From assembly GCA_963769425.1 (NCBI GenBank), contig CAVYLP010000004.1:96001-160000 (forward strand): a stretch of 64,000 nt of DNA, written 5' to 3'. Position 1 is the stretch's first letter, and the number at the start of each line of letters is the position of its first letter. The notes beneath the pieces are model-generated. The model saw only the letters and a list, made by a program, of their open reading frames with translations. It did no database searches and was not told where the DNA came from. This document shows, in pieces, positions 9,570 through 49,127 of this stretch. A program made the position numbers and the translations under genes. This stretch comes from Candidatus Bathyarchaeota archaeon. Its GTDB lineage: Archaea; Thermoproteota; Bathyarchaeia; TCS64.

Positions 9570-11197
9570 GTGAAAGGCTTGTCGTACGATCTACTCATAA
9601 AAAACGGCAAGGTGATCGACGGCGCCGGGAACCCCTGGTACTGGGGCGACGTCGCTGTCGAAGGCGACCGGATCGCCGCCATAGGAAAACTACCCGACGC
9701 CAAGGCGCAGAGGGTCATCGATGCCAAGGGACTCGTCGTCGCACCCGGCTTCGTCGACGCCCACAGTCACAGCGACTTTAACACCCTCGTCTACCGCGAG
9801 ATGGAGAGCTCCGTCATGCAGGGCATCACGACTGTGGTCGCAGGCCAATGCGGCTCAACCGCAGCCCCCGTCGACCCCGCCCAGCGTGAGTCATTCGAGA
9901 AGCAGGTCAACGCCCAACTCCCATCCGGGGTCAAGATCAAGGTGACTTGGAGCACATTCGACGAGTACCTCAGGGAGGAGGAGAAGGCGGGTCTCGGCGC
10001 CAACGTCGCCCACATGGTCGGGCACGGCGCCATACGAGAGGCCGCGATGGGCCCAGACGCCCGCCCCCCGACCGCCAAGGAGCTGAAGAGGATGAAGGAA
10101 CTCTGCAGGGAGGCCATGCAGGCGGGCGCCTACGGTCTCAGCTCCGGCCTCATCTACCCACCCGGCATCTTCGCCAACACCCGCGAGCTCATTGAGGTCG
10201 CTAAGGTCGCTGCGGAGTACGGCGGTATCTACGACACACACATCAGAGGCGAAGGCCGAGCCCTCCTCAAATCGGTACGTGAGGCCATCAAGATAGGAGA
10301 GAAGGCCGGGCTCCCCGTCCAGATAAGCCACCACAAGGCCGCGAACAAGGCGGTCTGGGGGAAGAGCAGGACGACCTCAAGACTCATTGAGAAGGCTCGC
10401 GCAAAGGGGATAGATGTCACAGTCGACCAGTACCCCTATCGCGCCGGTGCAACAAGCCTAGTCACACTCCTACCCCCGTGGGCCCACGACGGCGGCATGG
10501 AGAAGCTCCTCGCCCGTCTGGCCGATCCCAAGCAGAGGGAGAAGATGAGGAGGACATCAAGGACGGCATCCCCGGTTGGGAGAACTTCGCCGGCGAAATC
10601 GGTTGGGAGAACGTCATGGTCTCCAGCATCAAGGGGGAGAAGAACCGCCGATACGAGGGGAAGACCATGGACGTTATCGCGAGGGAGATGAATGAGAAGG
10701 ACGTCTTCGACGCCCTCTGGAAGTTAATCCTCGCCGAGGAGGGGACTCCTGGAATGATAATATTCAGCATGGATGAGGGCGATATCAAACGCATCATGGC
10801 GAGTCCCTACCAGATGGTCGGAACCGACGCGAGCAGTGTCTGCACAATCGGCCCATTCGGCCTCGGTAAACCACATCCTCGTTACTATGGAACCTACCCG
10901 AGGGTCCTCGGAAAGTACGTTCGCGAGGAGGGGGTAATACGCCTCGAGGAGGCGATAAGGAAGATGACGAGTTTCCCCGCCCAGCGCTTCGGCATTCTGG
11001 ACCGTGGCCTCCTCCGACCAGGGATGCACGCCGACATCACAGTTCTCGACCCGGACAAGGTTATCGACAAGGCAACATTCGAGGACCCCCACCGATACCC
11101 TGAGGGCATCCCATACGTTGTCGTCAACGGTGTCGTAACCGTAGATGATGGGAAATTCAAGAAAACCCTGGCGGGGAAGACGCTGAGAAAACGCTAA
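9570..11197 (+). CDS. N-acyl-D-amino-acid deacylase (D-aminoacylase); 1-nt frameshift near 10550
   Basis: PGFVDAHSHSD, GQCG, THIRGE in ORF 9570-10691. HPRYYGTYPRVLG and GMHADI lie in the overlapping ORF ending at 11197. Confidence 0.9.
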
Positions 11198-11290
11198 CAC
11201 CCCCTAAAAAAAGTCCTAATAATCTATAAAATTCCACTAATTACTATATATGAATTAAAAACGAGTTGATTTAATAATAATTGGTCATTG

Positions 11291-12030
11291 GGCAGGTATC
11301 AGGGTTATTTGACGAGTATCATGCCCGATCTTGACCCCCACTATCGGGGAATGTGTTCCTTGTAGCGGGTATATTGTTCCTAGTAGCAGGAATTTAATTC
11401 CTAGCAGAAGGTACATCGTATTCCTAGTAGCAGGAAGTCACTTCCTGGTAGCTGGAATGTTCTTCTTCCTTGTAGCTGGTAGTTTCTTCCTATGTAGCTG
11501 GAATTCTCTTCCTTGTAGCTGGAATGTCCCTATTCCTTGTAGCAGGAAGTATCTTCCTTGTAGCTGGTATATTCTTCCTTGTAGCTGGTATTTTCTTCCA
11601 TGTAGCTAGGAATGGGATTCCTAGTAGCATGGTATAACGATTTTTCCGCGTCGCCGATTCCATGCAGCGGGTACATCGGGACCCATCACCCCGTTAGCCG
11701 ATCTCTCCCCAGTCCCATTCGTGGATGGTGTGGAGACTCTGTTCCTGGTACGGTGGTACATGTTCCGTGTAGGGTGGCACAAATTGTTCCTGCTAGGGTG
11801 GAACACGGAGCCTTCTGATCGGGGTGATGTGTTCCGGGTAGGTGGAACGTGTTCCGTGTAGGGTGGCGCAAATTGTTCCAGTAGGGTTGAACATGTTCCG
11901 GCTACGCCTGGATAACGTTTTTTCCACGCATCTATGCCAATTAGGAGGGTTACGTATTCTCCTTGACACGAACCGGGTTCCTAGTAGGGTGGAATCACAA
12001 AGCGCTCTGCAATGACCCTCGATACCTGCC
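11291..12030. repeat. Imperfect ~20-bp inverted repeat bracketing most of the motif array
   Basis: 11291-11309 GGCAGGTATC-AGGGTTATT versus the reverse complement of 12011-12030, GGCAGGTATCGAGGGTCATT (1 gap, 1 mismatch). Confidence 0.7.
11356..11673 (+). repeat. Phased tandem array, subfamily A: 14 copies of TTCC(T/A)(A/T)GTAGC(A/T)GG(A/T)A
   Basis: TTCC starts at 11356, 11377, 11398, 11421, 11442, 11466, 11487, 11509, 11533, 11554, 11575, 11596, 11618 and 11658. Spacing is mostly 21 bp (range 21-24; the last gap is 40). Confidence 0.95.
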
Positions 12031-12060
12031 ACTGGGAATCAGGTTCCTACTAGGGTGGTA
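11742..12060 (+). repeat. Array subfamily B: ~9 copies of GTTCC-NNNTAGGGT-GG(A/T/C)A
   Basis: TTCC at 11742, 11763, 11787, 11832, 11852, 11876, 11896 (degenerate), 11978 and 12044. Segments 11761-11790 and 11850-11879 are 29/30 identical. Confidence 0.9.
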
Positions 12061-12127
12061 TAGCACACTGGCTGGCTGGGCGTATGTGCCTCGCTGGTAG
12101 GAATAAGGAAAAACATCACTTTTTGCA

Positions 12128-12141
12128 CCTGCTACTAGGAA
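12128..12141 (-). repeat. Single inverted copy of the subfamily A motif
   Basis: CCTGCTACTAGGAA is the reverse complement of TTCCTAGTAGCAGG found at 11377 and 11421. Confidence 0.85.
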
Positions 12142-12347
12142 TCCCCTTTCTACTACGGATGTAAACCCTACCACTTAGTAACGAAAAAGAAAAAGAATCG
12201 TAGGGGGCTCCAAGTGGCAGGGATGATCTCCTTCATCCCATTCGAGGATCGTACTGGCTATGAAAAGATGTATTTTTTTAAAATGATCAGAAGGTTAAAT
12301 GAATATTTTAAGTGGACCAATCGTTATTATTATCGGCGTATCTATAC

Positions 12348-13867
12348 ATGTTTGCGCACGCGCGCTCAAAGAAATTATTTATACTAATCTTATTCTCCAC
12401 AACACTATTAGCTGGATTAATTGGATATTTTTATTCTCAGTATCAAAGTGACTCGGAAATTAGCAATGGAAAATACGAGTAAGACTTCAGCTAAGCCAGT
12501 TGATTGACAAAGAGGCTACGTTAAGTGAAACAAACCTCAATTTAACAAGGGCTTCAGCAAATCTTCTCCAGATTAACGATAGTCTAAATCTGGAAAATGA
12601 TGCGTTGAAGATGCGTTTGGAGGCATTAAGAGCTCAAGGAACACAACAGGCGAGTTGGGTACTATATTTGGAGGGAAATTCAACCCTCGCTAGGAACGTC
12701 CGTACAAACCAAGTGGAGTACACTGGTGAATCAGCTGACGCCCTGCAATACACAATTGGTCAAGGTGGGCTGACTTACCTAGTTAGCGGACGATACAATC
12801 TCTCACACAGTGTTATCTTAGCAAGTAATTCAGGGATCGTCGGGGATGGTCAAGGAACCCAGCTATTTCTAAACGACAATTCAAATCGGGATCTTCTTGT
12901 GATACCTTCAGGTTCCGTAAATTGCATAATTTCTAATCTATACTTGAACGGGAATAAAGCACATAATGAAGCCGGTTCCGGTATCGCAATATATGGTTAT
13001 AATTGGAGACCTATAATTCAGCATGTCACAATCAGGGACTGCGCTGATTACGGATTGATGACCACAGATGGCTCGGGTAACTACGTCTACGAGCCCATCT
13101 TTTTCGACATTGATGTAAGGAACTGCGGGCTCGATGGCTTGAACTTCGGTTTCTGCTCTGACGCATACGGCATGGACATCTACTCGGAAGGAAACGCCGG
13201 AGCGGGGATACAGCACTTCGACGTTGCTGGGACGTGGATACATGAGCACTCAACGTTCAACTTCGGGGAGTATGGCTTTGTGGTGAGCGGATCATCTACA
13301 GATCTGCGTTTCTTGGAGACGCACGTAGACAAGAATCAGCAAAATGGAATGCTGCTCGGTGGTAAGAGGAACACCCTATCCGGGGCGTTTATATTTAATA
13401 GTGGTCAGATGTCGCCCAATACCTATGACGGCTTAGTGATAGAAAATGCTACGGAATGTATTATATCTGGTTGCATAATCACGGATTACCAGACCAATAA
13501 AACGCAGAGACGAGGAGTCGTAGAAACTGGGGGCTCTGATTACAATATTATTCAGAGCAATGACCTGAGTGGAAACATTGAACAAAGCATAATCAAAGGA
13601 GTTCATGATAAAGTCGTTATTAATGGAGGATATGTTACTGAAAATCAGGGAGTTGCCCTAATTGTTGAGGGAACAAAGAGCATTAGGGTTCAGCATGGAT
13701 GTCAATACACACCCTCCCCCGGAGACGTTCATGTGACACCAGCATCCAATCTTTCAAACTGCACTCAGTTCTGGGTGTCCAATATCGACTCTACTGGTTT
13801 CACAATCAATCTTGATGGAAACTGCATGAGTCAGGTTGATTTCGCTTGGAGTGTAGACCGTCACTAA
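12348..13867 (+). CDS. Membrane-anchored right-handed parallel beta-helix (pectate-lyase/NosD-like) surface protein; frameshift near 12470
   Basis: 12348-12482 encodes MFAHARSKKLFILILFSTTLLAGLIGYFYSQ (signal or anchor). 12500-13867 encodes a coiled coil, then PbH1-like repeats (GIVGDGQGTQL, ISNLYLNGNK, GIAIYG) and a C-terminal beta domain. Confidence 0.75.
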
Positions 13868-13934
13868 TAACTAATTCATGCATGAGAAAAAGAGCGCTGA
13901 GAAAAAATTTCAAAAAAAAGGGAAAAAAATTGTT

Positions 13935-14400
13935 TTAGGTTCCAACAATGAGTTCGTCAGACTTGCAATGTCCCTCAAAGTATGGTACGGCCTTGTACGT
14001 TATCCTTGCATCTGCTTGTACGGTATCATATCCTGGAAATGCTCCCCCATAATTCACCAGAGTGAATCCGCCCCTAGGAGGCGTCACTGGGGACCCATCG
14101 CACCAACTAGCGACAGCGTTTTGAGTATTTGCTGACGCACTTGGTCTTAAGTTCGGTAGCAAAACAACGTCGGGGGAACCATGTTCATGATCGATGGTTG
14201 TCTTGCCATCTATCGTTTTGACTGATTGAAGGTGTACCGTGACCTCTTCGAGTCTATAGAATCCGGTCATGTTATGAACAGTAACAACGTATAGGGCACG
14301 TTCGTCGTAATTCCATAAGGGTCCGGAGTAGGTATATCGCAGGATGACTTTAGCCGTTCTCGATCTTGGCCCTTGGCTACTCCCATCTCGCAGTCGAATT
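13935..14400 (-). CDS. Hypothetical protein, probably 5'-extended or frameshifted
   Basis: The frame of ORF 13935-14270 stays open upstream (RDWEIRLRDGSSQGPRSRTAKVILRYTYSGPLWNYDERALYVVTVHNMTG...). No family recognised. Confidence 0.4.
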
Positions 14401-14795
14401 TCCCAATCGCGTTAAAGTATACCTCAACATTCGCAGTACCGGAGCTTTTCGGGTTAAATGTCTGTTTAGGCGGAATGTTTTGGAGGTTATCCCCAGATAC
14501 TGTTGGGATGATTATGTATCAATTATAGTAGAAAATGATATTTCAACAGAAAGTTTAATGCTATTATTACTTACGGAATAAACAATAGGCTGAATCTAAC
14601 AATATTTTTTGATGTATTCTTCCAGATGATGCTCATTGAGTAAGTATTGGCTTGGCTGATTCTGCCAGGAGGATCACGTACAAAGGTTACTGTTATTGGA
14701 GCAGCTTCTTCAGGTGGGGAATTTACCTTTGATGGCTAACATAGATCTGTAGGTCGTTCGAGAATATTGGTGCCTGGTCCTTAAGGATCATTCTA

Positions 14796-15212
14796 TTAGC
14801 TCAAGATAGACAACCGGTTCAACTGCTGCAGGTCTTGTTGTATAGTAAAAAAGATTGGATGAACTCTGCCTCGTTTAAGAAGCGTCGGGGTATTATGCAG
14901 AGGTTTTGAATATATGCTGGCATATATACCCGCTATTACCCCAGCTACAATTAGACAGAAACCTACAACTGCAACAGCACTACTTAAAATGAAACTCTCC
15001 TGGGCCTGAAGCCGTGTCTGTGCAACATATTCGTCCAATGAAGAGGAATCAATTAGCAGTAAATACTTAAAAATATCCGTATCTTTTTGCGCTTTTTTAA
15101 TTTCGTCAAAGTATTGTTTTCTTTCATCTTTCGCACTTGTTACCAGAGCTAAAAGGGCTTCTCTGGTTTTAGCACCACCCGCTAGCGAACTTAGGAAATC
15201 TTTTATCCCCAT
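14796..15212 (-). CDS. Two-TM membrane protein resembling the TRADD-N-associated membrane domain (3' part frameshifted)
   Basis: EYVAQTRLQAQESFILSSAVAVVGFCLIVAGVI, followed across frames by AEFI...LYNKT/LQQLNRLS. Confidence 0.55.
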   Translation of the reverse strand: MGIKDFLSSLAGGAKTREALLALVTSAKDERKQYFDEIKKAQKDTDIFKYLLLIDSSSLDEYVAQTRLQAQESFILSSAVAVVGFCLIVAGVIAGIYASIYSKPLHNTPTLLKRGRVHPIFFTIQQDLQQLNRLSILS

Positions 15213-15384
15213 TTCTATACGGCATCTCCTTGAGACTCATGAAGTTACCTTTGATTATCACTATATTAAATATTGCATAACGCGCGTAAATGCAGTATTA
15301 TCCGTTTGTTTTTCGTGGAGTCACATTACCTCACCCTCGCCCCGCCCCCATCTCACATATTCACCAAATTACGAATTTATCTAG

Positions 15385-16281
15385 TTGACCAGCAATTCTA
15401 GAGTCATTGGAGGATTGGGCATTATGAGTTTCACATGGTCATTCAAAGCGTTCGCTCATTACATAGTTAATCCACCTACAATGCAGTCTGGATGTGACAT
15501 TAGCCTTACATTGATCAATAATGTTGATGTCTTCCATCTCACCAAACAACGTATTGGTTCACAGACGGAATACGCTATAGTCGTATCTAACCCGACGAAA
15601 TTGGGTGTGAATAACAGTGAGCAAACGACAATAAACAGAGTGTCACAAGACTTGATCCTGGCATGCGGTTTAATCTTACGACGTAGTGCTCTTTCAATCT
15701 TCAGGTCTGATACAAGCAAACCTGACGTCGTCATGATACCGATTCCTGCTAAAACTATCGTGAAGGACACCCCAACAGGCAAGAGCATTGAGATTCATGA
15801 GACAGTGACCATGAGAGAAGAAGTCTACGTGACGGTAGGCACGAAGGAGGAACTAGATGAGTCCGAAGTGGTAAAACTGGTAATGCAATTGAATAAGCTT
15901 CAGAGGTTCAACCTAGATAGTGGTTATAGTTTACGGAAAGCCAATCTAATTAACGCTCTACACGAATATGAAGCGGCGATGGCGTCGTTTGATCGTCTTA
16001 TGATCTTCAAGCATTTGTACAATGTGCTAGAGATCGTTACCAACATAGACGGTATTGACAGAGAAAGAAGTGTACTCGATACACAAATGGCTTTAATTAC
16101 AGGGGTGCCACAGAGCCAGTGCGAAGAGTGGAGAAGTCTATACAATCGAACAAAGCATATATATCGTAATACTGCCGACGTTGCAACCTTTGTCACTAGA
16201 ATTGAGAAAGTGACCGATTATATCCCGGTTGCCAGAACAGCAGCAGGAAATGAACTGACCAAATTATTAATTTCAATTTGA
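15385..16281 (+). CDS. Hypothetical protein with C-terminal HEPN-like (ApeA/MauJ-like) helical domain
   Basis: AT-rich ORF with ALHEYEAAM...FKHLYNVLE...WRSLYNRTKH, resembling HEPN E...Rx4-6H architecture. Confidence 0.5.
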   Translation: MTSNSRVIGGLGIMSFTWSFKAFAHYIVNPPTMQSGCDISLTLINNVDVFHLTKQRIGSQTEYAIVVSNPTKLGVNNSEQTTINRVSQDLILACGLILRRSALSIFRSDTSKPDVVMIPIPAKTIVKDTPTGKSIEIHETVTMREEVYVTVGTKEELDESEVVKLVMQLNKLQRFNLDSGYSLRKANLINALHEYEAAMASFDRLMIFKHLYNVLEIVTNIDGIDRERSVLDTQMALITGVPQSQCEEWRSLYNRTKHIYRNTADVATFVTRIEKVTDYIPVARTAAGNELTKLLISI

Positions 16282-16440
16282 ATTTCGGCATAGCTATATA
16301 ACCATTATATAATATTATGTGGCTGTCAACAGACGACAATATATAAAAAAGGAATTGCGATTATATTATACGAACGTACTAAAATACGAAAGGGAATAAA
16401 GTAGGCCGAAAATGGGGGCGTATATAGAAAAAAATTTCGG

Positions 16441-17505
16441 TTATTTTATGTGCACATAGAAGTTTATCTTATATACTTCCTCATGTGCTTTCATGTGCTT
16501 CGGCGTCGCGTGGGGAACCGGCAGGTCGATCATCGTCTTGAAGCCGGGCTCCGCGTTGATCACGAGCGGGATCATGTTCGCAGTGATGGCGATCGTAGCG
16601 TAGTCACCGTGCGTGCATGGGCTGATCTTCTCGTTGATCGGCGGCACACCCTTGATGGTGACGCTGTCGAACTCCTCAGGGGCACCGATGTACGCCTTGA
16701 AGTCCATGGTGATCATCTTCTTGCCTTTGACGATGCCGTAGGCCATCTGCATCGAGCCCGCGTTGTAGCCCTTCGGCACCTTGATCGCCTCGCTCGCTGC
16801 ATCCTTCTTGAGAACGACAGGCTCGGGGGTCTCCACCTTGATCTCATCCAGTTCCCAGCCCAGCGCGTCCGCGATCATCTGGATGCTCTGCTCTAGACCA
16901 ACGTGGCCGGTGATCTCGTGGCTCGCGATCTTCTTCTTGAATTCGTCGACCGTGAGGCCTGCACCTATCTTCGTCTGGAAGGGTATGCGGCGTGTCGCTG
17001 CATCCATCTGGCGTGCGATGTAGATGTCGTCGACCTTCTGGCAGACGGCGGTGAGGAACGTTGGGAGGGTGTCCATTACGAAGCCTGGGTTGACCCCGGT
17101 GCCGAGGATGGTTGCCTTTCCCTTCTTCGCCACCTTGTCCAGCTTTTCTGCGTACTTCTTGCCCTCGGGTGTCGCGTAGGGGTAGCTCAGCTCCTCGCAC
17201 GTTGAGACGACATTCACGCCGTGCTTGAGGATACCCTCAAACTGGGTGTAGGTCTGCTTCAGGTAGCTCATCGTCGTGTGTGTGACGATGTCGGGTTTGG
17301 TCGCCTCGAGGACGGCGTCGACGTCGTCGCTGATCTTGACGCCGAGCTTTTTCCTCCCCATGACCTCTCCGAGGTCCTTGCCCACTATCTTGGGGTTGAT
17401 GTCGATTGCGCCGACGATTTCCACACCCTCTTTCTCGAGGAGGTGGGTCACCAGCTTTTGACCGATTACGCCTATGCCGTATGAGACGACCTTGACGTTC
17501 TCCAA
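16441..17505 (-). CDS. 2,4-diaminopentanoate dehydrogenase / native amine dehydrogenase family (DapB-like Rossmann fold)
   Basis: YGIGVIG, GVNVVSTCEELSYP, LGTGVNPGFVMD, KIGAG, GHVGL. Confidence 0.8.
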   Translation of the reverse strand: MENVKVVSYGIGVIGQKLVTHLLEKEGVEIVGAIDINPKIVGKDLGEVMGRKKLGVKISDDVDAVLEATKPDIVTHTTMSYLKQTYTQFEGILKHGVNVVSTCEELSYPYATPEGKKYAEKLDKVAKKGKATILGTGVNPGFVMDTLPTFLTAVCQKVDDIYIARQMDAATRRIPFQTKIGAGLTVDEFKKKIASHEITGHVGLEQSIQMIADALGWELDEIKVETPEPVVLKKDAASEAIKVPKGYNAGSMQMAYGIVKGKKMITMDFKAYIGAPEEFDSVTIKGVPPINEKISPCTHGDYATIAITANMIPLVINAEPGFKTMIDLPVPHATPKHMKAHEEVYKINFYVHIK

Positions 17506-42728: not shown

Positions 42729-42813
42729 GCAGGGGTTCCCGAGTGGCCAAAGGGGTCAGGCTTAGGACCTGATGGTTAGTCCTCCGTGGGTTCGAACCCC
42801 ACCCCCTGCACCA
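42729..42813 (+). tRNA. tRNA-Leu(UAG), CCA encoded
   Basis: Acceptor GCAGGGG/CCCCTGC, anticodon arm TCAGG-CTTAGGA-CCTGA, long variable arm, T-arm GTGGG-TTCGAAC-CCCAC. A TTTTAAAT TATA-like box lies upstream. Confidence 0.95.
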
Positions 42814-42828
42814 TTTTACTAGCGCGCG

Positions 42829-43448
42829 CCGCATCTGCGAACCTGATCTCTTATGGCTAATCAGAATACACGCTACATATCTTTCCTCTTCATAGTCGTG
42901 CAGTAGACTCGGAAGCCGATCTTCTCCCAGAACTTATTGCCACGGGGGTTGGACTCTAAGACCTCGAGACTAAGTTCTGAGCCCTTCGGGAAGTGCTTCT
43001 CCGAGATGAGGTTGAAAGAGGCTTCTCCTAAGCCTTTACTTCGTTTCTCTCGACGAATGAAGAACTGGCGGACATACACCGTTGGCTGATCGGGGAAGTA
43101 GTCGTCCCTGCCCTCCTTGTAGAGCATGTAACCGGCTTCCTCGCCGTCTACATTTATCATAACTGCACGCCAATCGCTTCTAAGAAGTCCAATCATCCTG
43201 TTATTTAGCTCCATTATGTTCATGGGGTTCCGACTTCCCTCGTCCTCGATGAGTTGTTTGTTCCAGTTGGCAAGGGTGGGGACATCTGCGAGTGTTGCGG
43301 GTCGGATCTCAATGTTCATCTCAATCACGCCGGTTACCATGGGTTTTCTATCGAAGTTGTTTGACTTAAAGCGGTTATGACATGACTGGCTCAGTATTCT
43401 ACTTGTTTGCTCTAAGTGCAACAAATCCAAAGACCGCATCTGCGAACC
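42829..43448 (+). repeat. 15-bp perfect direct repeat CCGCATCTGCGAACC flanking the GNAT gene
   Basis: Copies at 42829-42843 and 43434-43448. Confidence 0.85.
42873..43340 (-). CDS. GNAT family N-acetyltransferase
   Basis: IRPAT..D, FFIRREKRSKGLG (motif A), L.VL..N..G..FW.K.GF. Confidence 0.88.
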   Translation of the reverse strand: MVTGVIEMNIEIRPATLADVPTLANWNKQLIEDEGSRNPMNIMELNNRMIGLLRSDWRAVMINVDGEEAGYMLYKEGRDDYFPDQPTVYVRQFFIRREKRSKGLGEASFNLISEKHFPKGSELSLEVLESNPRGNKFWEKIGFRVYCTTMKRKDM

Positions 43449-43558
43449 ATGCCCTAAACCGGAATCTTGTCAAGTAGGCTCATCAGTACGCGCGCGAGAA
43501 AATCCAGCAGCAGAAAGTAATGATTACTACCTTATATATTTCTTAACAAACCTCTGAA

Positions 43559-45077
43559 ATGATGATTTTCATGGCTCAAAACCCTAAGAATAAAATGTTC
43601 ATAGATGGCGAATGGGTTGACTCCTCCTCCGGCGAGAAGTTCGAAGTACGCGATCCATCGACAGGGAAAGTGTTCGAGAATGTTCCATCAGCGTCGTCAG
43701 AGGATGTCGATAAAGCGGTAGAATCCGCTAGAAATACATTCGATAATGGGAGTATGGAGTAAGGCTCCTCCAGCAGATAGAGCGAACGTCCTCCTGAAGG
43801 TCGCGTCGATGCTTGAGGAGAAGATAAACGAATTCGCGGAACTGGAGACGCGCAACTCCGGAAAATCGATCAAACAGTCAAGAAACTACGACCTACCCTA
43901 CACGATCGACAACATACGTTACATAGCTGGAGCGTCTCGCCTGCTCGAAGGCGACGCTATGGCAGAATACGTCGCAGATGGTACAAGCGCTGTGAGAAGG
44001 GAGCCCATCGGCGTCATTGCCGTGATCACGCCCTGGAACTACCCGTTGATGATGGTCATATGGAGAGCCTTCCCTGCTCTTGCGACTGGAAACAGTGTAG
44101 TACTCAAACCATCCTCCTACACGCCTCTTACCACATTAGAACTCGGACATATACTGCAGAAAGCCGGCGTACCGAATGGGGTCTTCAACATCGTCACAGG
44201 TCCAGGAAGTTCAGTCGGAGAGGATCTCGCTCGACACAAGAAAGTTGACATGATCGCTTTCACAGGCAGCACCGAAGTTGGGAAGCGACTATTGGAGCTC
44301 GGGTCGAAAACAGTGAAGAAGGTCTCTCTGGAACTCGGAGGTAAAGCCCCGTTCATAGTTCTTGAAGACGCCGACCTTGACGCCGCCACAGAGGGAGCGG
44401 TAATTGGGGGTCTCGTCAACAATGGGCAAGACTGCGCGAACTCTACGAGGTATTACATCCAAGAGTCTAGGCTCGAGGAGTTCCAAAGTCTACTCGTCGA
44501 GAAGCTAAGCAAGGTCCGTATAGGTGATCCATTTGATCCAGAAACAGATATGGGGCCGCTGATCTCCGAGGCGCAGCGTACAAGAGTCTTAGACTACATA
44601 GAGAAGGGAGTCGGAGATGGAGGCAGACTGCTTTATGGTGGGAAGAAGCCGAGGATAGCCAGACATCAAGGCGGCTTTTACTTGGAGCCCACGGCGATCT
44701 ACACCGATAACGACGACTCGTCTATCGTGAAGGAGGAGATTTTTGGCCCCGTCTTCACAGTCCTCAAGACTTCAGATTTAGAGGACGCTGTACAAAGGAG
44801 TAATGATGTGGTCTATGGGCTTGGCGCATCCATCTGGACCAGAGACGTGACGAAGGCTATGAGGGCTGTAAGGGACCTGAGGTTCGGCACCGTTTGGGTC
44901 AACGAACACGTCACAGTTCCATCGGAGATGCCTTGGGCTGGCTACAAACAGAGCGGTCACGGAGCCTCTCTATCTCGCTACAGCCTCGAAGAGTTCACCT
45001 ACATCAAGCACGTCTACTTCGATCTAACTGGCTTAGCAAGGAAGTCGTGGTATTACCAGGTGTATGGGAAGAAGTGA
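43559..45077 (+). CDS. NAD-dependent aldehyde dehydrogenase, aminobutyraldehyde/betaine-aldehyde-like; frameshift near 43750
   Basis: ITPWNYP, FTGS, LELGGK, NGQDC, EEIFGP. Confidence 0.9.
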
Positions 45078-45132
45078 AGTATAATTAGCAAGACACAATA
45101 AATGTCGCATCTTTCATAAGAAAAAAATAACC

Positions 45133-46371
45133 TCAACATGTTAAAGCTCCATCATACATCTGGTGCATCAACACCCTCGTGTTCTCAAGTGTCAGTTTCC
45201 TAGGATTGAATCTGGGGAGGCCGTATAGATGCTGGCGTTCATTGAAGATGTACTCTGCGAACCCGTCGATCTCGCCTTCTGGAATGCCGAGTTGTTTCAG
45301 ATTAGTTGGCAGCTCAAGGTCCTCCAATAGCTCCTTAACGCCGTATACGAATCTGTTGGCCGCTTCACGCGGTGATAGACCAATTACATCGTCACCAAGA
45401 ACTTGCCTAGAAACGTATGCGAGTTTCTCGATGCATGCTGGTAGATTGAACTGTAGTATGTAAGGCAGGACAACTCCACATGCTACGCCATGGGGGACTT
45501 TCCAACGAGGTCCCAACGCTTCCGCAACGCAATGTCCCAGTATTGCTGGGCCACCGATCCAGGGGTACGCGATCACTGTTCCTCCTAGGTTCGCAGCAAT
45601 AGCCATGTACCATCTTGCCTCCAGATCGTCCCCCGTGTGGTAGGCTCTTCTCGCGTATCCGAAGACGACCTTCGTGGCTTCCAGCGCCTGAGAGTCGGAT
45701 ATTGGGTTGGCTTCTCTATCTATAAGGGCCTCAACATTGTGGGATAGGGCGTCCATTGCGCTTCCGGCTGTCTGCTTTGGTGGACAGGAGATCACCATTA
45801 GGGGGTCTACTATCGCCACATCCGCCAAGAGGTTACTGCTGGCTGCCCATGTCTTGTATAGACCCTCGATAACGACGGAGTAGTTTGAGACTTCGCTGCC
45901 GGTACCAGAGGTTGTTGGGATGAGTATCTTCGGCTTCGCCGCGACTTTGCTCTTATCTTCTATGGGATTCATATAATTCATCACGTCTCCGGAGTTCGTT
46001 AAACAGAGGGCAACCATCTTCGCAGTATCCAGCACCGCACCACCCCCCACTCCAATGACGAGGTCATAGTTCCCCTCCCTGCCGAATGTCACAGCGGCCC
46101 CTATGCTGTCCGAGGTGGGTTCAGCGGAAATCTGATCGTAGATCTCAATATCTAAGCCAGTATTCCTTAATTTGTCTGCAACTGAATCAGTTATCCCAGC
46201 TTTTTTTACGCCCTTATCAGTGACCACGAGAATCTTCTTACCTCCGAGCCTCTTAGTCTCGGGACCAATAAATTCCTGCACAGCTCCTGTGGCGAAGATT
46301 ACTCTTCGAGGTAAATCATATACGCTCACCCTGGCCACGTTCAGCCTAGTCTCATAACCTTTCAGACTCAA
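45133..46371 (-). CDS. Iron-containing alcohol dehydrogenase family (hydroxyacid-oxoacid transhydrogenase / 4-hydroxybutyrate dehydrogenase-like)
   Basis: GVGGGAVLDTAK, PTTSGTGSE, DALSH, GH...PHGVAC metal ligands. Confidence 0.88.
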   Translation of the reverse strand: MSLKGYETRLNVARVSVYDLPRRVIFATGAVQEFIGPETKRLGGKKILVVTDKGVKKAGITDSVADKLRNTGLDIEIYDQISAEPTSDSIGAAVTFGREGNYDLVIGVGGGAVLDTAKMVALCLTNSGDVMNYMNPIEDKSKVAAKPKILIPTTSGTGSEVSNYSVVIEGLYKTWAASSNLLADVAIVDPLMVISCPPKQTAGSAMDALSHNVEALIDREANPISDSQALEATKVVFGYARRAYHTGDDLEARWYMAIAANLGGTVIAYPWIGGPAILGHCVAEALGPRWKVPHGVACGVVLPYILQFNLPACIEKLAYVSRQVLGDDVIGLSPREAANRFVYGVKELLEDLELPTNLKQLGIPEGEIDGFAEYIFNERQHLYGLPRFNPRKLTLENTRVLMHQMYDGALTC

Positions 46372-46636
46372 ATTACGTCTCTCCTATTGATTGTATGAAT
46401 TAGATGGGTGTTTATCGAGATTTAAAATAAACATGTTTTACATGTAAAAGATCTCAAATCCCTCATTATGGGTGCGCGCAGGTATTGCACACACACAAAT
46501 TACTAATAATAACGGGTTGGTGCCCCACCCCTGCACCAACTATTAATAAACAAAACTCCTGTGTGGATATTAGTGTCATAATACCTATGTTATTTAGGAC
46601 AGATTCTATATTGCACCTATCGCAAATATTCCACAT

Positions 46637-47260
46637 ATGTTCACAAGGGTCCTCCCTGCTATCATAGCGGGAAACCAAGAAGAGCTAGATGCTATGTTGG
46701 GGCGCCTGCTGGGCAACGTCGAATGGGTTATGCTCGATTTTATGGATGGCAGATTCGTGGCCTCCACAGCACTTATGTTTGACTTAAAATTGCCGAAAGG
46801 GCTCCGTTACGAGGCTCATCTAATGGTAAAAACGCCTATGCACAATTTGGAGGAGCTTCGAGGGAAGGTAGAGTCTGTGATAATCCATGTTGAGTCGGAT
46901 GGTTTCTCGGAGGCGCTGACCAGGGCAAGGAGCCTCGGTTACGAAGTCGCCGCGGCGATCAACCCCGGGACACCGACGAAACTCCTCGAAGAACACCTGA
47001 AAGAGTTGGACAGAGTCCTCGTCATGACCGTTGAACCAGGCAGGTACGGTGCGCCCTTCGTGCCTGCGGCTCTAGAGACTGTGAAATATCTGAGAATGCT
47101 AGCACCGCAATTACCAATCGAGGTCGATGGCGCTATGAATCCAGAGAATGCAAGAAAGGCCAAGGAAGCTGGCGCCAATATCTTCGCTTCTGGTAGCTAC
47201 ATTGTGAAGAGCCCCGACCTTAAGGGTGCAATAATGGCCCTTGAAGCAGCTGTAAGATGA
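46637..47260 (+). CDS. rpe: Ribulose-phosphate 3-epimerase family
   Basis: LDFMDGRFV, EAHLMV, INPGTP, LVMTVEPG, IEVDG, GANIFASGS. Confidence 0.85.
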   Translation: MFTRVLPAIIAGNQEELDAMLGRLLGNVEWVMLDFMDGRFVASTALMFDLKLPKGLRYEAHLMVKTPMHNLEELRGKVESVIIHVESDGFSEALTRARSLGYEVAAAINPGTPTKLLEEHLKELDRVLVMTVEPGRYGAPFVPAALETVKYLRMLAPQLPIEVDGAMNPENARKAKEAGANIFASGSYIVKSPDLKGAIMALEAAVR

Positions 47261-47490
47261 GATTCTTTGAATGTCGATTCCTTCGAGTGACTATAATCCA
47301 TGTATGTTGGATATGAGGGTTGATCCGTTATTGAATTATTGTGAATTGTGTTCTCCGCTTTGCCTTTTTATTAACGTTTTAAAAATAATTTCCTTAGAAA
47401 ATATACCAATCCGGACCCCATTTATTGGTAAAGTTTAAATTGGTCCTTTGGAGTGGGTTTTCTTAGTATTAAGCTGTCTCAAACGGAGAA

Positions 47491-47793
47491 GTGCTTAGAG
47501 TTTTGTCATCATCTCAACCGTGTTACTCTAGGTGTAGAGATTTTAGCTGCACAAAGAGGGCTATGTCCTTCAGAGGTAAGTCTACGTGGTGCCAATGGAC
47601 GGAGGCGGAGTGTGAGCCGACGAAGTGCACTTATGCAGTGTGCTTTAAGCGTCAGCTCCTCGACAACGGTGTCTGTGGCTTCACAATCAAAAGGAAGACC
47701 CAAGAGGATTCGGAGCCGGATACTTTCCAGTTACCTGAAGTACGTGCGAGAGGTAAACTCGCCAAGAAGGTCGGGGATAGGAGCATCTATTAG
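47491..47793 (+). CDS. Small Cys-rich hypothetical protein
   Basis: Eight Cys in C.S.C..F.C.K.A...WC.W...C...C.YA.C....L..G.C; co-oriented with the downstream methyltransferase. Confidence 0.6.
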   Translation: MLRVLSSSQPCYSRCRDFSCTKRAMSFRGKSTWCQWTEAECEPTKCTYAVCFKRQLLDNGVCGFTIKRKTQEDSEPDTFQLPEVRARGKLAKKVGDRSIY

Positions 47794-47820
47794 CCTCCTC
47801 CTGTAAAATCAAGTTCGGCC

Positions 47821-48666
47821 ATGAAGCGGGACATCCGTAGCGAGTTGTCGGGCATTATCCCCACCGAATTAATCGGGCTTGTGCCACGTTCCTTCGACGT
47901 TATTGGTTCAAAGGGCCGAGCGGTGGCGGTCATCGAGGTACCACCTGAGCTTGAGCAATATGGTGTCGCCATAGGGGAAGCCCTGATGCGAGTTCAGAGG
48001 AACGTGAGAAGCGTCCTCTCGAAGGGGACCGAGCGCATGGGTGGATTCCGCGTACGAGAGATGACTCTCCTTACCGGTGACTCAGACACCGAGGTACTCC
48101 ACAAGGAGTCAGGATGCGTATTCAAGGTCGACCCGGCCAAGGCGTACTTCTCGCCGAGGGAGTCGACCGAGAGGGAGAAGATAACATCGCAGGTGGCTCC
48201 CCATGAGAGAGTCCTTGTTATGTTTAGTGGTGTCGGGCCATTTGCCATTTGCATCGCTAAGAGGCAGCCGACAGTCTCGTGTGTCGCTGTCGAGTTTAAC
48301 CCCGCTGGACACAGATACTGCTTGGAGAACATCCAACTCAATAAAGTAGGTGATCGGGTCACAGCCATCCTCGGTGATGTCCGGGAGGTCTGTCCGTCGC
48401 TCGGTGAAAGGTTCGACAGAGTCCTCATGCCACTCCCGAAGGGGGCATACGAGTACCTCGACGTCGCTGTTCCTATGGTTAAACCCGGGGGTATCCTCCA
48501 TTTCTACCATTGGGCACAGAGGGATGACCCCTTCACGGAGGGTGAAAGAATCCTTACAGAAGCCGCTGAAAGTTTTGGTAGAGTAGCGGAAGTAACTGAC
48601 CGCGTCAGGGTCTCCCAATATAGTCCATCCGCTTGGAAGATCAGATTAGATGCCCGTATTGTCTAG
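47821..48666 (+). CDS. Trm5/Taw2-family SAM-dependent tRNA G37/wyosine methyltransferase (short form without D1 domain)
   Basis: SFDVIG, HKESGC.F.VD..K.YFSPR...ER, VMFSGVGPF, DRVLMPLP. Confidence 0.85.
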   Translation: MKRDIRSELSGIIPTELIGLVPRSFDVIGSKGRAVAVIEVPPELEQYGVAIGEALMRVQRNVRSVLSKGTERMGGFRVREMTLLTGDSDTEVLHKESGCVFKVDPAKAYFSPRESTEREKITSQVAPHERVLVMFSGVGPFAICIAKRQPTVSCVAVEFNPAGHRYCLENIQLNKVGDRVTAILGDVREVCPSLGERFDRVLMPLPKGAYEYLDVAVPMVKPGGILHFYHWAQRDDPFTEGERILTEAAESFGRVAEVTDRVRVSQYSPSAWKIRLDARIV

Positions 48667-48942
48667 CTACTTGTTCTCTTCCTTCTCGCCTTCCCTCTCT
48701 AGGTCGAGCGGATTGTCGAGCGGGATCGGCGGCGGGGTCGTCGCCATGGTGTAACCAATCCAGAGAACTATGAAGAGCATTATGTAGACAGCCGCCAGGA
48801 TCGGGAGTTTGAAAGCCCAATCAGCTATTTCTTGGCTGATAAATCCAATCCCTAACTGGGGACCGAAAGACCATGCGAAGTACCCGATCATTATCAGCGC
48901 GGTGATCAGCATAATCGAGTATCCAAGCGACTTATCGTTCAA
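48667..48942 (-). CDS. Small archaeal 2-TM membrane protein
   Basis: Hydrophobic ORF with a WIGYTMATTPPP motif. Confidence 0.7.
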   Translation of the reverse strand: MNDKSLGYSIMLITALIMIGYFAWSFGPQLGIGFISQEIADWAFKLPILAAVYIMLFIVLWIGYTMATTPPPIPLDNPLDLEREGEKEENK

Positions 48943-49127
48943 TATCTACGCCTCTCGATATCTTGTTGTGCTTAACATTATTAGTCTTTTCTTTATGAAG
49001 AATTAGATATCAGGTTATTCGACTACACCAGCTGACTAACAAGCTCCCTCTCCCCCTCCATTAACCCTCTGAGAATATAGGCAATGGTTAAAAAGGTAAG
49101 CTGGGAATTAATTCGCTTACGTGACAG

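Follow-up and report, generated by a model that had tools for sequence, protein, structure and literature searches.

A dispersed family of tandem palindromic DNA sites in a Bathyarchaeota genome and its probable origin in the packaging module of tailed proviruses

Bathyarchaeia are a major uncultured lineage of sediments, and their viruses are barely known. In the genome of one of them (Candidatus Bathyarchaeota archaeon, assembly GCA_963769425.1) a tandem array of short quasi-palindromic DNA sites occupies positions 11356-12141 of the stretch analyzed here, a 64,000-nucleotide segment of contig CAVYLP010000004.1 (positions 96,001 to 160,000), which we call the window. The question raised by this locus is where such an array comes from and what it could be a platform for. 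We found that it belongs to a family of arrays at ~27 places in the same genome, which very probably originated from the intergenic region ahead of a small gene, termed gene X, in the packaging module of tailed proviruses. We consider the chances to be even that the window array is an orphaned, amplified virus-derived cis-element and a predicted multi-site DNA platform for a dimer of the gene X type. Coordinates without prefix are those of the window; C1 to C6 denote the contigs of the genome, the window being part of C4.

By sequence reading and a site scan, 14 sites of the form TTCC-N2-GTAGC-N-GG-N-A (type A) were located on the forward strand. They start at 11356, 11377, 11398, 11421, 11442, 11466, 11487, 11509, 11533, 11554, 11575, 11596, 11618 and 11658, with spacings of 21, 21, 23, 21, 24, 21, 22, 24, 21, 21, 21, 22 and 40 bp, in agreement with the 14 copies mostly 21 bp apart described in a first-pass annotation of the same DNA. 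The first 13 form sub-array A (11356-11634; site scan, Tandem Repeats Finder (TRF) and pattern count), which runs into an array-end motif, GGTATAACGATTTTTCC, at 11631-11647 on the same strand; the fourteenth, TTCCATGCAGCGGGTA (11658-11673), is the terminal site of module A and lies ~10 nt past that motif. A 68-nt spacer (11674-11741) leads to sub-array B, also on the forward strand (11742-11912; TRF and site scan), with seven sites of the form (G)TTCC-N2-GTAGGGT-GGAAC, and to a second array-end motif, GGATAACGTTTTTTCC (11910-11925, forward strand). Module C (11970-12143) follows, with forward sites at 11978-11994 and 12044-12060, reverse sites at 12023-12038, 12087-12103 and 12126-12141, and a run of five T at 12120-12124. 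About nine variant copies with a longer core had been noted before, and nine sites with a GTAGGGT-type core were located, starting at 11742, 11763, 11787, 11832, 11852, 11876, 11896, 11978 and 12044. A single exact inverted copy had also been reported at 12128-12141; the inverted site is there (12126-12141), but it is one of three and carries one mismatch to the consensus. TRF gives periods of 21, 45, 67 and 109 at 11356-11624 and of 21 and 44 at 11740-11900. With at most one mismatch, the 16-nt pattern TTCCWWGTAGCWGGWA occurs ten times in the window, against a mean of 0.02 in 100 dinucleotide shuffles, none of which reached ten. AT-rich tracts flank the array on both sides, as had been seen at first pass, the left one (11200-11290) lying between the stop codon of an amidohydrolase gene (11198) and the array. 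The helical phasing proposed at that time is retained as an approximation: the repeats are of ~21 bp, but a mean spacing of ~21.8 bp makes the sites slip by roughly a full helical turn from one end of the array to the other. Past 12143, the stretch 12144-12225 contains degenerate site-like pieces (CTACTAC at 12150-12156, CCTACC at ~12167-12172 and TCCAAGTGGCAGGGA at ~12208-12222) and has no counterpart at any other locus in the genome.

The array is not an assembly artefact. Logan contigs from four peat and sediment metagenome runs, which contained only 0.26-0.30 of the sampled words, were compared with 10300-13300, and independent short-read contigs of two of the runs (X3 and X4, the X4 contig being 641 nt long) join the amidohydrolase gene on the left flank to the array. 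Both skip 11356-11420, which is exactly three units (65 bp); array copy number therefore differs among strains at the same place. Among runs recorded as RNA, none contained this stretch. A protein-coding repeat of seven residues, another explanation foreseen at first pass, is ruled out as well. Among the 94 adjacent spacings in eight large arrays of the genome (21 bp in 49 cases, 22 in 18, 23 in 14, 24 in 8, 20 in 4 and 25 in one), 37 are not multiples of three and break the frame, and the longest open reading frame (ORF) across the window array has 92 aa.

Is the array unique? The rest of the genome contradicts the view that it is a singular feature. Scanning the 2.55-Mb, six-contig genome with the type A pattern gave 67 matches against one for a control pattern; the same scan of 40 relatives, which had been suggested along with it, gave at most four matches in each, the control level. 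Large arrays begin at C2:142982, C3:227216, C4:9428, C4:107356 (the window array itself), C6:260043, C6:323516, C6:762527 and C6:900233, and ~27 loci were compiled by BLAST, TRF and motif scans when shorter pieces are included. Over 712 bp, 11442-12143 shares 89% identity with the copy at C4:9428-10132. Twenty-three array ends align over ~85 nt with one common architecture, in which a series of sites passes through two ending sites into GG(T)ATAACG(A)TTTTT, followed after ~10 nt by one further site. A conserved spacer of ~68 nt can precede a second sub-array of a different site type, as it does in the window. All site types retain the core (T/A)GTAG(C/G) and the GG that follows it, while the arms change together: TTCC/GGAA in type A, GTTCC/GGAAC in type B, GGTACC/GGTACC in type E and GATCC/GGATC in type F. 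In type D (TTCCTAGTGGCGGTGTC) a complementary right arm is missing. The window array is thus one member of a dispersed site family.

An exact pattern of two type A sites had no match in genome contigs of 185,579 species and none in IMG/VR. The end-motif pattern, with up to two mismatches, matched 20 times in the source genome, where the control had none; of 70 other genomes in the same family, 7 had one or two matches, some of them being small clusters of sites or a single large palindrome. Five matches were obtained in metagenome contigs, of which two (L054 and L055) are true related arrays and three are due to chance; the single match in IMG/VR is a chance one inside a coding region. Scanning IMG/VR with the site patterns and gene X gave no genuine match, and none of the 28 pattern matches of one alignment (A1) was confirmed.

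A chromosomal replication origin, an initiator titration array or a segregation centromere would be natural readings of phased ~21-bp repeats with AT-rich flanks, and the TTCC...GGAA dyad recalls the origin recognition box (ORB) elements of archaea. All were raised at first pass, and all are now very improbable. There are ~27 loci and not one to three; the only Cdc6_C match of the genome is at C1:24396-24674, and since this sole Orc1/Cdc6 gene and the window are on different contigs an origin here is unlikely. Cumulative GC skew, proposed earlier as a check, shows no turn at 11-12 kb in the window. No gene of the ParA/SegA type was found beside any array examined and no ParA/SegA-type or Cdc6 gene among the neighbors scanned; the earlier remark that the window array has no adjacent initiator or partition gene was correct, and no gene for a binding protein adjoins it either. 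Within 8 kb of the eight large arrays no conserved gene was found. In seven congeners synteny runs to the amidohydrolase stop codon and no array follows. A false lead is thereby removed, an undiscovered origin or segregation system being a very improbable reading of the array.

Immediately to the left of many arrays we found a small ORF on the opposite strand, reading away from the array. This is gene X, the product of which begins with MR(K/S)Y(I/V)FT-x2-ERRRL-x2-WL. Within 300 nt of the array, with side and strand as expected, this strict motif occurs at 7 of the 27 loci, compared with 8 of 2000 random windows, and those seven loci hold gene X or its wreck. Four full-length copies (79-130 aa) were identified in the genome with a hidden Markov model, plus degraded ones beside arrays. 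An intact close paralogue is located on the same contig as the window array and ~244 kb away from it (C4:351848-352123), and an intact paralogue has been retained with a module C array in front. Directly left of three arrays are ordinary host genes (ABCE1-like, ABC ATPase and M20 peptidase). A 3' fragment of a tRNA-Leu gene lies left of the array at C6:323516; an association of arrays with tRNA genes was considered and rejected, there being no consistent link across arrays.

The relatives reveal the setting of gene X, which is present in 54 of 301 genomes of the class, the source genome included, and in 37 of 70 of the same family. There it lies between the gene of a 482-aa protein with ABC_tran and GNAT domains (phrog_293, E 6e-34) and a second small ORF, after which comes the large terminase (Terminase_6N, 31.2 bits with a cut-off of 22; phrog_2, E 9e-35). 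Among 30 gene X loci, read with 1.5-kb flanks, 11 have the large terminase downstream, 11 have the ABC/GNAT gene upstream and 17 have the second small ORF. The source genome itself possesses an apparently intact block at C2:93451-95193, consisting of gene X (C2:94957-95193), the small ORF and a large terminase that shares 62% identity with the one in a relative (locus L040); this block is likely a more recent provirus. Fragments of the same genes adjoin arrays: a piece of terminase at C3:227776-228006, and C-terminal pieces of the ABC/GNAT gene that abut the end of module C at C4:352290-352475 and C3:176420-176566. These fragments place the arrays between the ABC/GNAT gene and gene X, in the intergenic region of a packaging module of tailed proviruses, an origin that we regard as very probable for the window array too. 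The sharp end of module C, where all of its ~16 copies found by BLAST stop at the base corresponding to 12143, is the stop of the upstream ABC/GNAT gene. Among the candidates listed at first pass, a cis-acting remnant of an integrated element is the one that fits best.

Some relatives also have a palindrome at this place. One with CTAC, TTAC or GTAG in a 5-9-nt spacer, at most 120 nt upstream of gene X, was found at 8 of 29 loci of relatives, compared with 17 of 580 random windows drawn from the same loci. Its arms measure 6-10 nt and differ from locus to locus, and the same core stands mid-site in the arrays. In some relatives (loci L024, on G101:C50, L027 and L031) gene X starts ~120 nt after a complete tRNA gene, with two or three direct repeats of the GGGGGTTTTTATACC type in the gap, so an integrated provirus can have its packaging block right at one edge. 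The ORF that follows gene X (1501-2027 at L040 and 1194-1720 at L037; listed with 159 aa) overlaps gene X by ~230 nt in another frame, and only its residues ~54 to 120 are conserved across loci; its true start is thus probably after the gene X stop. Either this second small ORF or gene X could be the small terminase.

Could the modules instead spread by themselves? One possibility is a non-autonomous element resembling a miniature inverted-repeat transposable element (MITE), the sites being terminal or subterminal sites of a transposase or recombinase. The arrays are dispersed and species-specific, and the common sharp end of the ~16 module C copies would suit such an element. Module C is bounded by inverted TTCCTAGTAG sites, in some copies it appears to have been inserted into a single site that is then present on both sides, and one metagenome contig joins 11387 directly to 11970. 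Yet no target-site duplication was seen at the eight large arrays, within 8 kb of them neither a transposase nor any other gene is conserved, and the common end falls at the stop codon region of a remnant viral gene. A resemblance to terminal inverted repeats would, moreover, arise from any two inverted sites. We therefore consider a self-spreading element improbable.

If the arrays derive from a packaging module, is it as DNA or as RNA that the sites act? In 68 units from the eight large arrays, anchored only on TTCC, positions 7-11 (GTAGC), 13-14 (GG) and 16 carry 1.3-2.0 bits, position 16 being A in all 68, whereas positions 5, 6, 12 and 15 and the linkers carry 0.3-1.1 bits. This pattern of conservation looks like that of protein contact positions. 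Position 15 is not conserved, so the second pair of a hairpin stem is often broken. The stem would have only 4 bp, type D lacks a complementary arm, and minimum-energy folds of both strands consist of long-range pairings between units and contain no unit hairpins. Together these properties favor double-stranded DNA sites, and DNA rather than RNA is probably the active form. The argument made at first pass, that the frequent GGTA variant speaks for binding of protein to DNA, agrees with the same observations.

The end motif is relevant here. At 23 array ends it combines a run of five to eight T with a part resembling a transcription factor B recognition element and TATA box (BRE/TATA-like), and T-runs are a terminator signal in archaea. 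A position weight matrix trained on 41 tRNA promoters of the source genome (median site score, 12.2 bits; 99th percentile of the background, 9.6) gives the motif 8-13.5 bits on the array strand and outscores the opposite strand at 19 of 23 ends; in the window the values are 8.0 against 5.2 bits for the first motif and 12.8 against 3.3 bits for the second. We had considered it as a promoter aimed at gene X and withdrew this proposal because the array strand scores higher at those 19 ends. From its sequence the motif may be a promoter of either direction, a terminator or both.

Such a motif would suit transcribed arrays, in which the repeat units act in RNA as hairpins or protein-binding motifs, as in a sponge-type or processed noncoding RNA, with promoter, leader, repeats and T-run terminator in that order. 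A T-run on the array strand closes every sub-array, the promoter score is mostly higher on that strand, the arms change together between array types, and folding energies are below those of shuffles (z -3.1 and -3.5 for the two strands). The short and often broken stems, the armless type D sites and the long-range folds described above oppose this reading, and Rfam searches of the array gave nothing, whether at gathering scores or with E values up to 1. Palindromic sites of a dimer in DNA account equally well for the co-variation of the arms. A role in RNA is accordingly about as improbable as that of a self-spreading element.

Another possibility is that nothing binds the arrays today and that they are neutral scars of decaying proviruses, grown by replication slippage and free of function. 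Neighboring viral genes are decayed or gone, copy number differs by whole units between strains, and at the syntenic position the array is absent from all seven congeners, as would be expected. Against it, the core positions are much better kept than the linkers and internal variable positions, a pattern for which recent slippage alone does not account; the arrays have outlasted coding genes at ~27 loci; and one gene X paralogue has stayed intact with a module C array before it. We rate this explanation as unlikely, with some reserve.

What kind of protein does gene X encode? Its product is small (60-100 aa), helical and basic. A profile search of 1.84 billion representatives gave 168 clusters (50% identity) at E<=0.001, mostly of 55-100 aa, and a protein homologue search returned the cluster of the query only. 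The best small-terminase match, Terminase_7 (E 0.05, 14 bits), amounts to no detectable signature, and the best match among PDB sequences, FADD (E 0.35), is due to chance. An AlphaFold2 model built from 80 sequences (mean predicted local distance difference test score, pLDDT, 79.9) leaves residues 1-7 unstructured; a helix spans 8-20 and a long one 25-61, and the tail is basic. Modeled as a homodimer (residues 1-66), the protein reaches an interface score (ipSAE) of 0.60, compared with 0.00 for the best of three controls. Of 30 proteins solved as one-chain pairs, 20 attained this mark, as did 1 of 23 single-chain structures. Agreement between runs covers at least 100% of contacts, with a partner pLDDT of at least 77. 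This modeling supports, but does not prove, dimer formation by gene X. As the binder of the sites gene X is a tentative candidate, which we place slightly below even chance.

These results suggest the following course of events. The ancestral site would have been a single palindrome with a (G/A)(C/T)TAC center, still found between the ABC/GNAT gene and gene X in some loci. In this species the palindrome would have multiplied into tandem arrays, the modules of which are now at ~27 places where the viral genes have mostly decayed or gone, the window copy being left without any. Dimers of the gene X type may occupy the sites side by side on double-stranded DNA. In the virus, the role of the region could be that of a packaging recognition region, similar to cos or pac, or of an operator of the packaging operon. 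At an orphan copy such as that in the window, the sites could only bind or titrate a protein of the gene X type. The first-pass idea of a platform for a dimeric protein thus survives as the best reading, in the form of a DNA platform with predicted repeated binding by a small dimer.

Several observations count against this proposal. The spread of a non-coding module to ~27 loci is left unexplained by it. Beside the window array there is neither a viral gene nor a remnant of gene X, and 20 of the 27 loci do not have the strict gene X motif. The intact packaging block on C2 has no array in front, and 21 of the 29 loci of relatives have no palindrome of the type described. Since the relatives are kin, the enrichments overstate independence. 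Six real-looking loci with sites and end motif in relatives have no gene X, terminase or ABC/GNAT gene within 1.5 kb. Gene X matched no DNA-binding family in Pfam, PHROGs, PDB sequences, PDB and BFVD folds or the ESM Atlas, and its profile aligned to the single RHH_1 protein of the genome with an hhalign probability of 0.4%. Because fold, sequence and profile searches were all blank (hhalign, PDB and BFVD folds, PDB sequences and ESM Atlas), a ribbon-helix-helix (RHH) fold for gene X, suggested by a free N-terminal segment with two helices after it, is an unsupported guess from topology.

The host might also have an interest of its own in the arrays. It could keep them as DNA decoys that soak up a viral packaging or late-gene protein, or as pseudo-packaging sites through which host DNA would enter capsids. 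As decoys, the specificity types A-F would match different virus lineages, and the protein would be soaked up from superinfecting viruses. We give this only a slim chance; if true, either role would represent an undescribed, sequence-only virus-host interaction in archaea.

The novelty lies in an uncharacterized protein family with its candidate site, and in how that site has been multiplied and dispersed across a host chromosome. Gene X is an unannotated family heading the terminase operon of tailed proviruses of Bathyarchaeia, and with the sites it provides a candidate protein-DNA pair for packaging or late-gene control of these viruses. A cis-element of probable viral origin that is amplified and scattered over the host chromosome while the viral genes decay poses the question of decoys versus scars.

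In the window the array is surrounded by genes for P5CR, the split amidohydrolase, a beta-helix protein, small membrane proteins, a DAP dehydrogenase-like protein, a signal-peptidase-like protein and TBP. The amidohydrolase gene (Amidohydro_3, 9570-11197) is split into overlapping ORFs at 9570-10691 and 10478-11197. Inside their overlap, at ~10550-10552, one extra base is present in related strains from two metagenome runs, so the window copy is either a frameshifted pseudogene or contains a one-base assembly error. Starting at the array, a low-GC island extends over 11200-17000 (42-48% against ~60% on both sides). It codes for a right-handed beta-helix protein (12500-13867), for small membrane proteins and for ORFs that belong to no family, and neither a viral nor an integrase gene was seen in it. 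Just upstream of the start of the beta-helix gene, at 12449-12477, contigs of two metagenome runs (X1 and X4) show six small gaps that together remove 23 bases. In one congener (G003) the amidohydrolase stop is followed, after ~30 nt, by sequence like 13700-13860. A second low-GC stretch (42729-49000, 47-53%), which begins right after a tRNA-Leu(TAG) gene (42729-42813), may be an integrated element.

Which known systems does the array resemble? Some likenesses are of form. With the ORB and mini-ORB elements of archaeal origins it shares a short TTCC...GGAA dyad, several copies and AT-rich surroundings, but its dyad spacing is 8 nt instead of ~3, no orc1/cdc6 gene is adjacent, and its sites stand in tandem and in one orientation, up to 26 per locus and at ~27 loci. 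Like MITEs, repetitive extragenic palindromes (REP) and bacterial interspersed mosaic elements (BIME), the family is species-specific, dispersed and intergenic, with a short quasi-palindromic unit and, in module C, inverted end sites. It differs from them in its long one-directional tandem arrays with a fixed end module, and neither a target-site duplication nor a transposase was seen. Clustered regularly interspaced short palindromic repeats (CRISPR) also have partly palindromic direct repeats, a conserved leader-like flank and several loci per genome. CRISPR repeats measure 23-50 bp and alternate with unique spacers of similar length, whereas here the repeats are of 16-17 bp, the linkers of 5-8 bp, and there are no unique spacers.

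Two other comparisons go deeper. Small dimeric plasmid proteins bind arrays such as parC (ParR, plasmid R1), the heptad arrays of omega protein (pSM19035) and the ParG sites of TP228. These centromere or operator arrays likewise consist of many direct repeats spaced by one to two helical turns and lie in a mobile element, around a promoter-like element and directly upstream of the gene of the small dimeric protein. In our family the repeats lie upstream of gene X at 7 of 27 loci, the window array not being among them. The differences are that no adjacent NTPase (nucleoside triphosphatase) partner of the ParA/ParM/TubZ type was found, so the array does not belong among partition systems, that ABC-GNAT and terminase genes adjoin in relatives, that the RHH fold is unsupported, and that there are ~27 chromosomal loci, mostly without the gene.

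Small terminases bind cos or pac regions, for example at the R sites of lambda cosB and at pacL and pacR of SPP1. For the family, though not for the window copy, the place directly upstream of the small gene or genes preceding the large terminase is shared, since in relatives the large terminase is the second gene after gene X. Repeated sites for a protein, predicted here, are shared as well, and so is a symmetric element whose center is asymmetric. Known regions have two to four sites against 10-26 here, and gene X shows no detectable small-terminase signature. The listings and abstracts retrieved on tandem repeats in Bathyarchaeia, and on small terminase or pac sites with tandem repeats, mention no such arrays. 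By analogy, the array would work most like the operator or centromere arrays of small dimeric proteins or like a cos/pac terminase recognition region.

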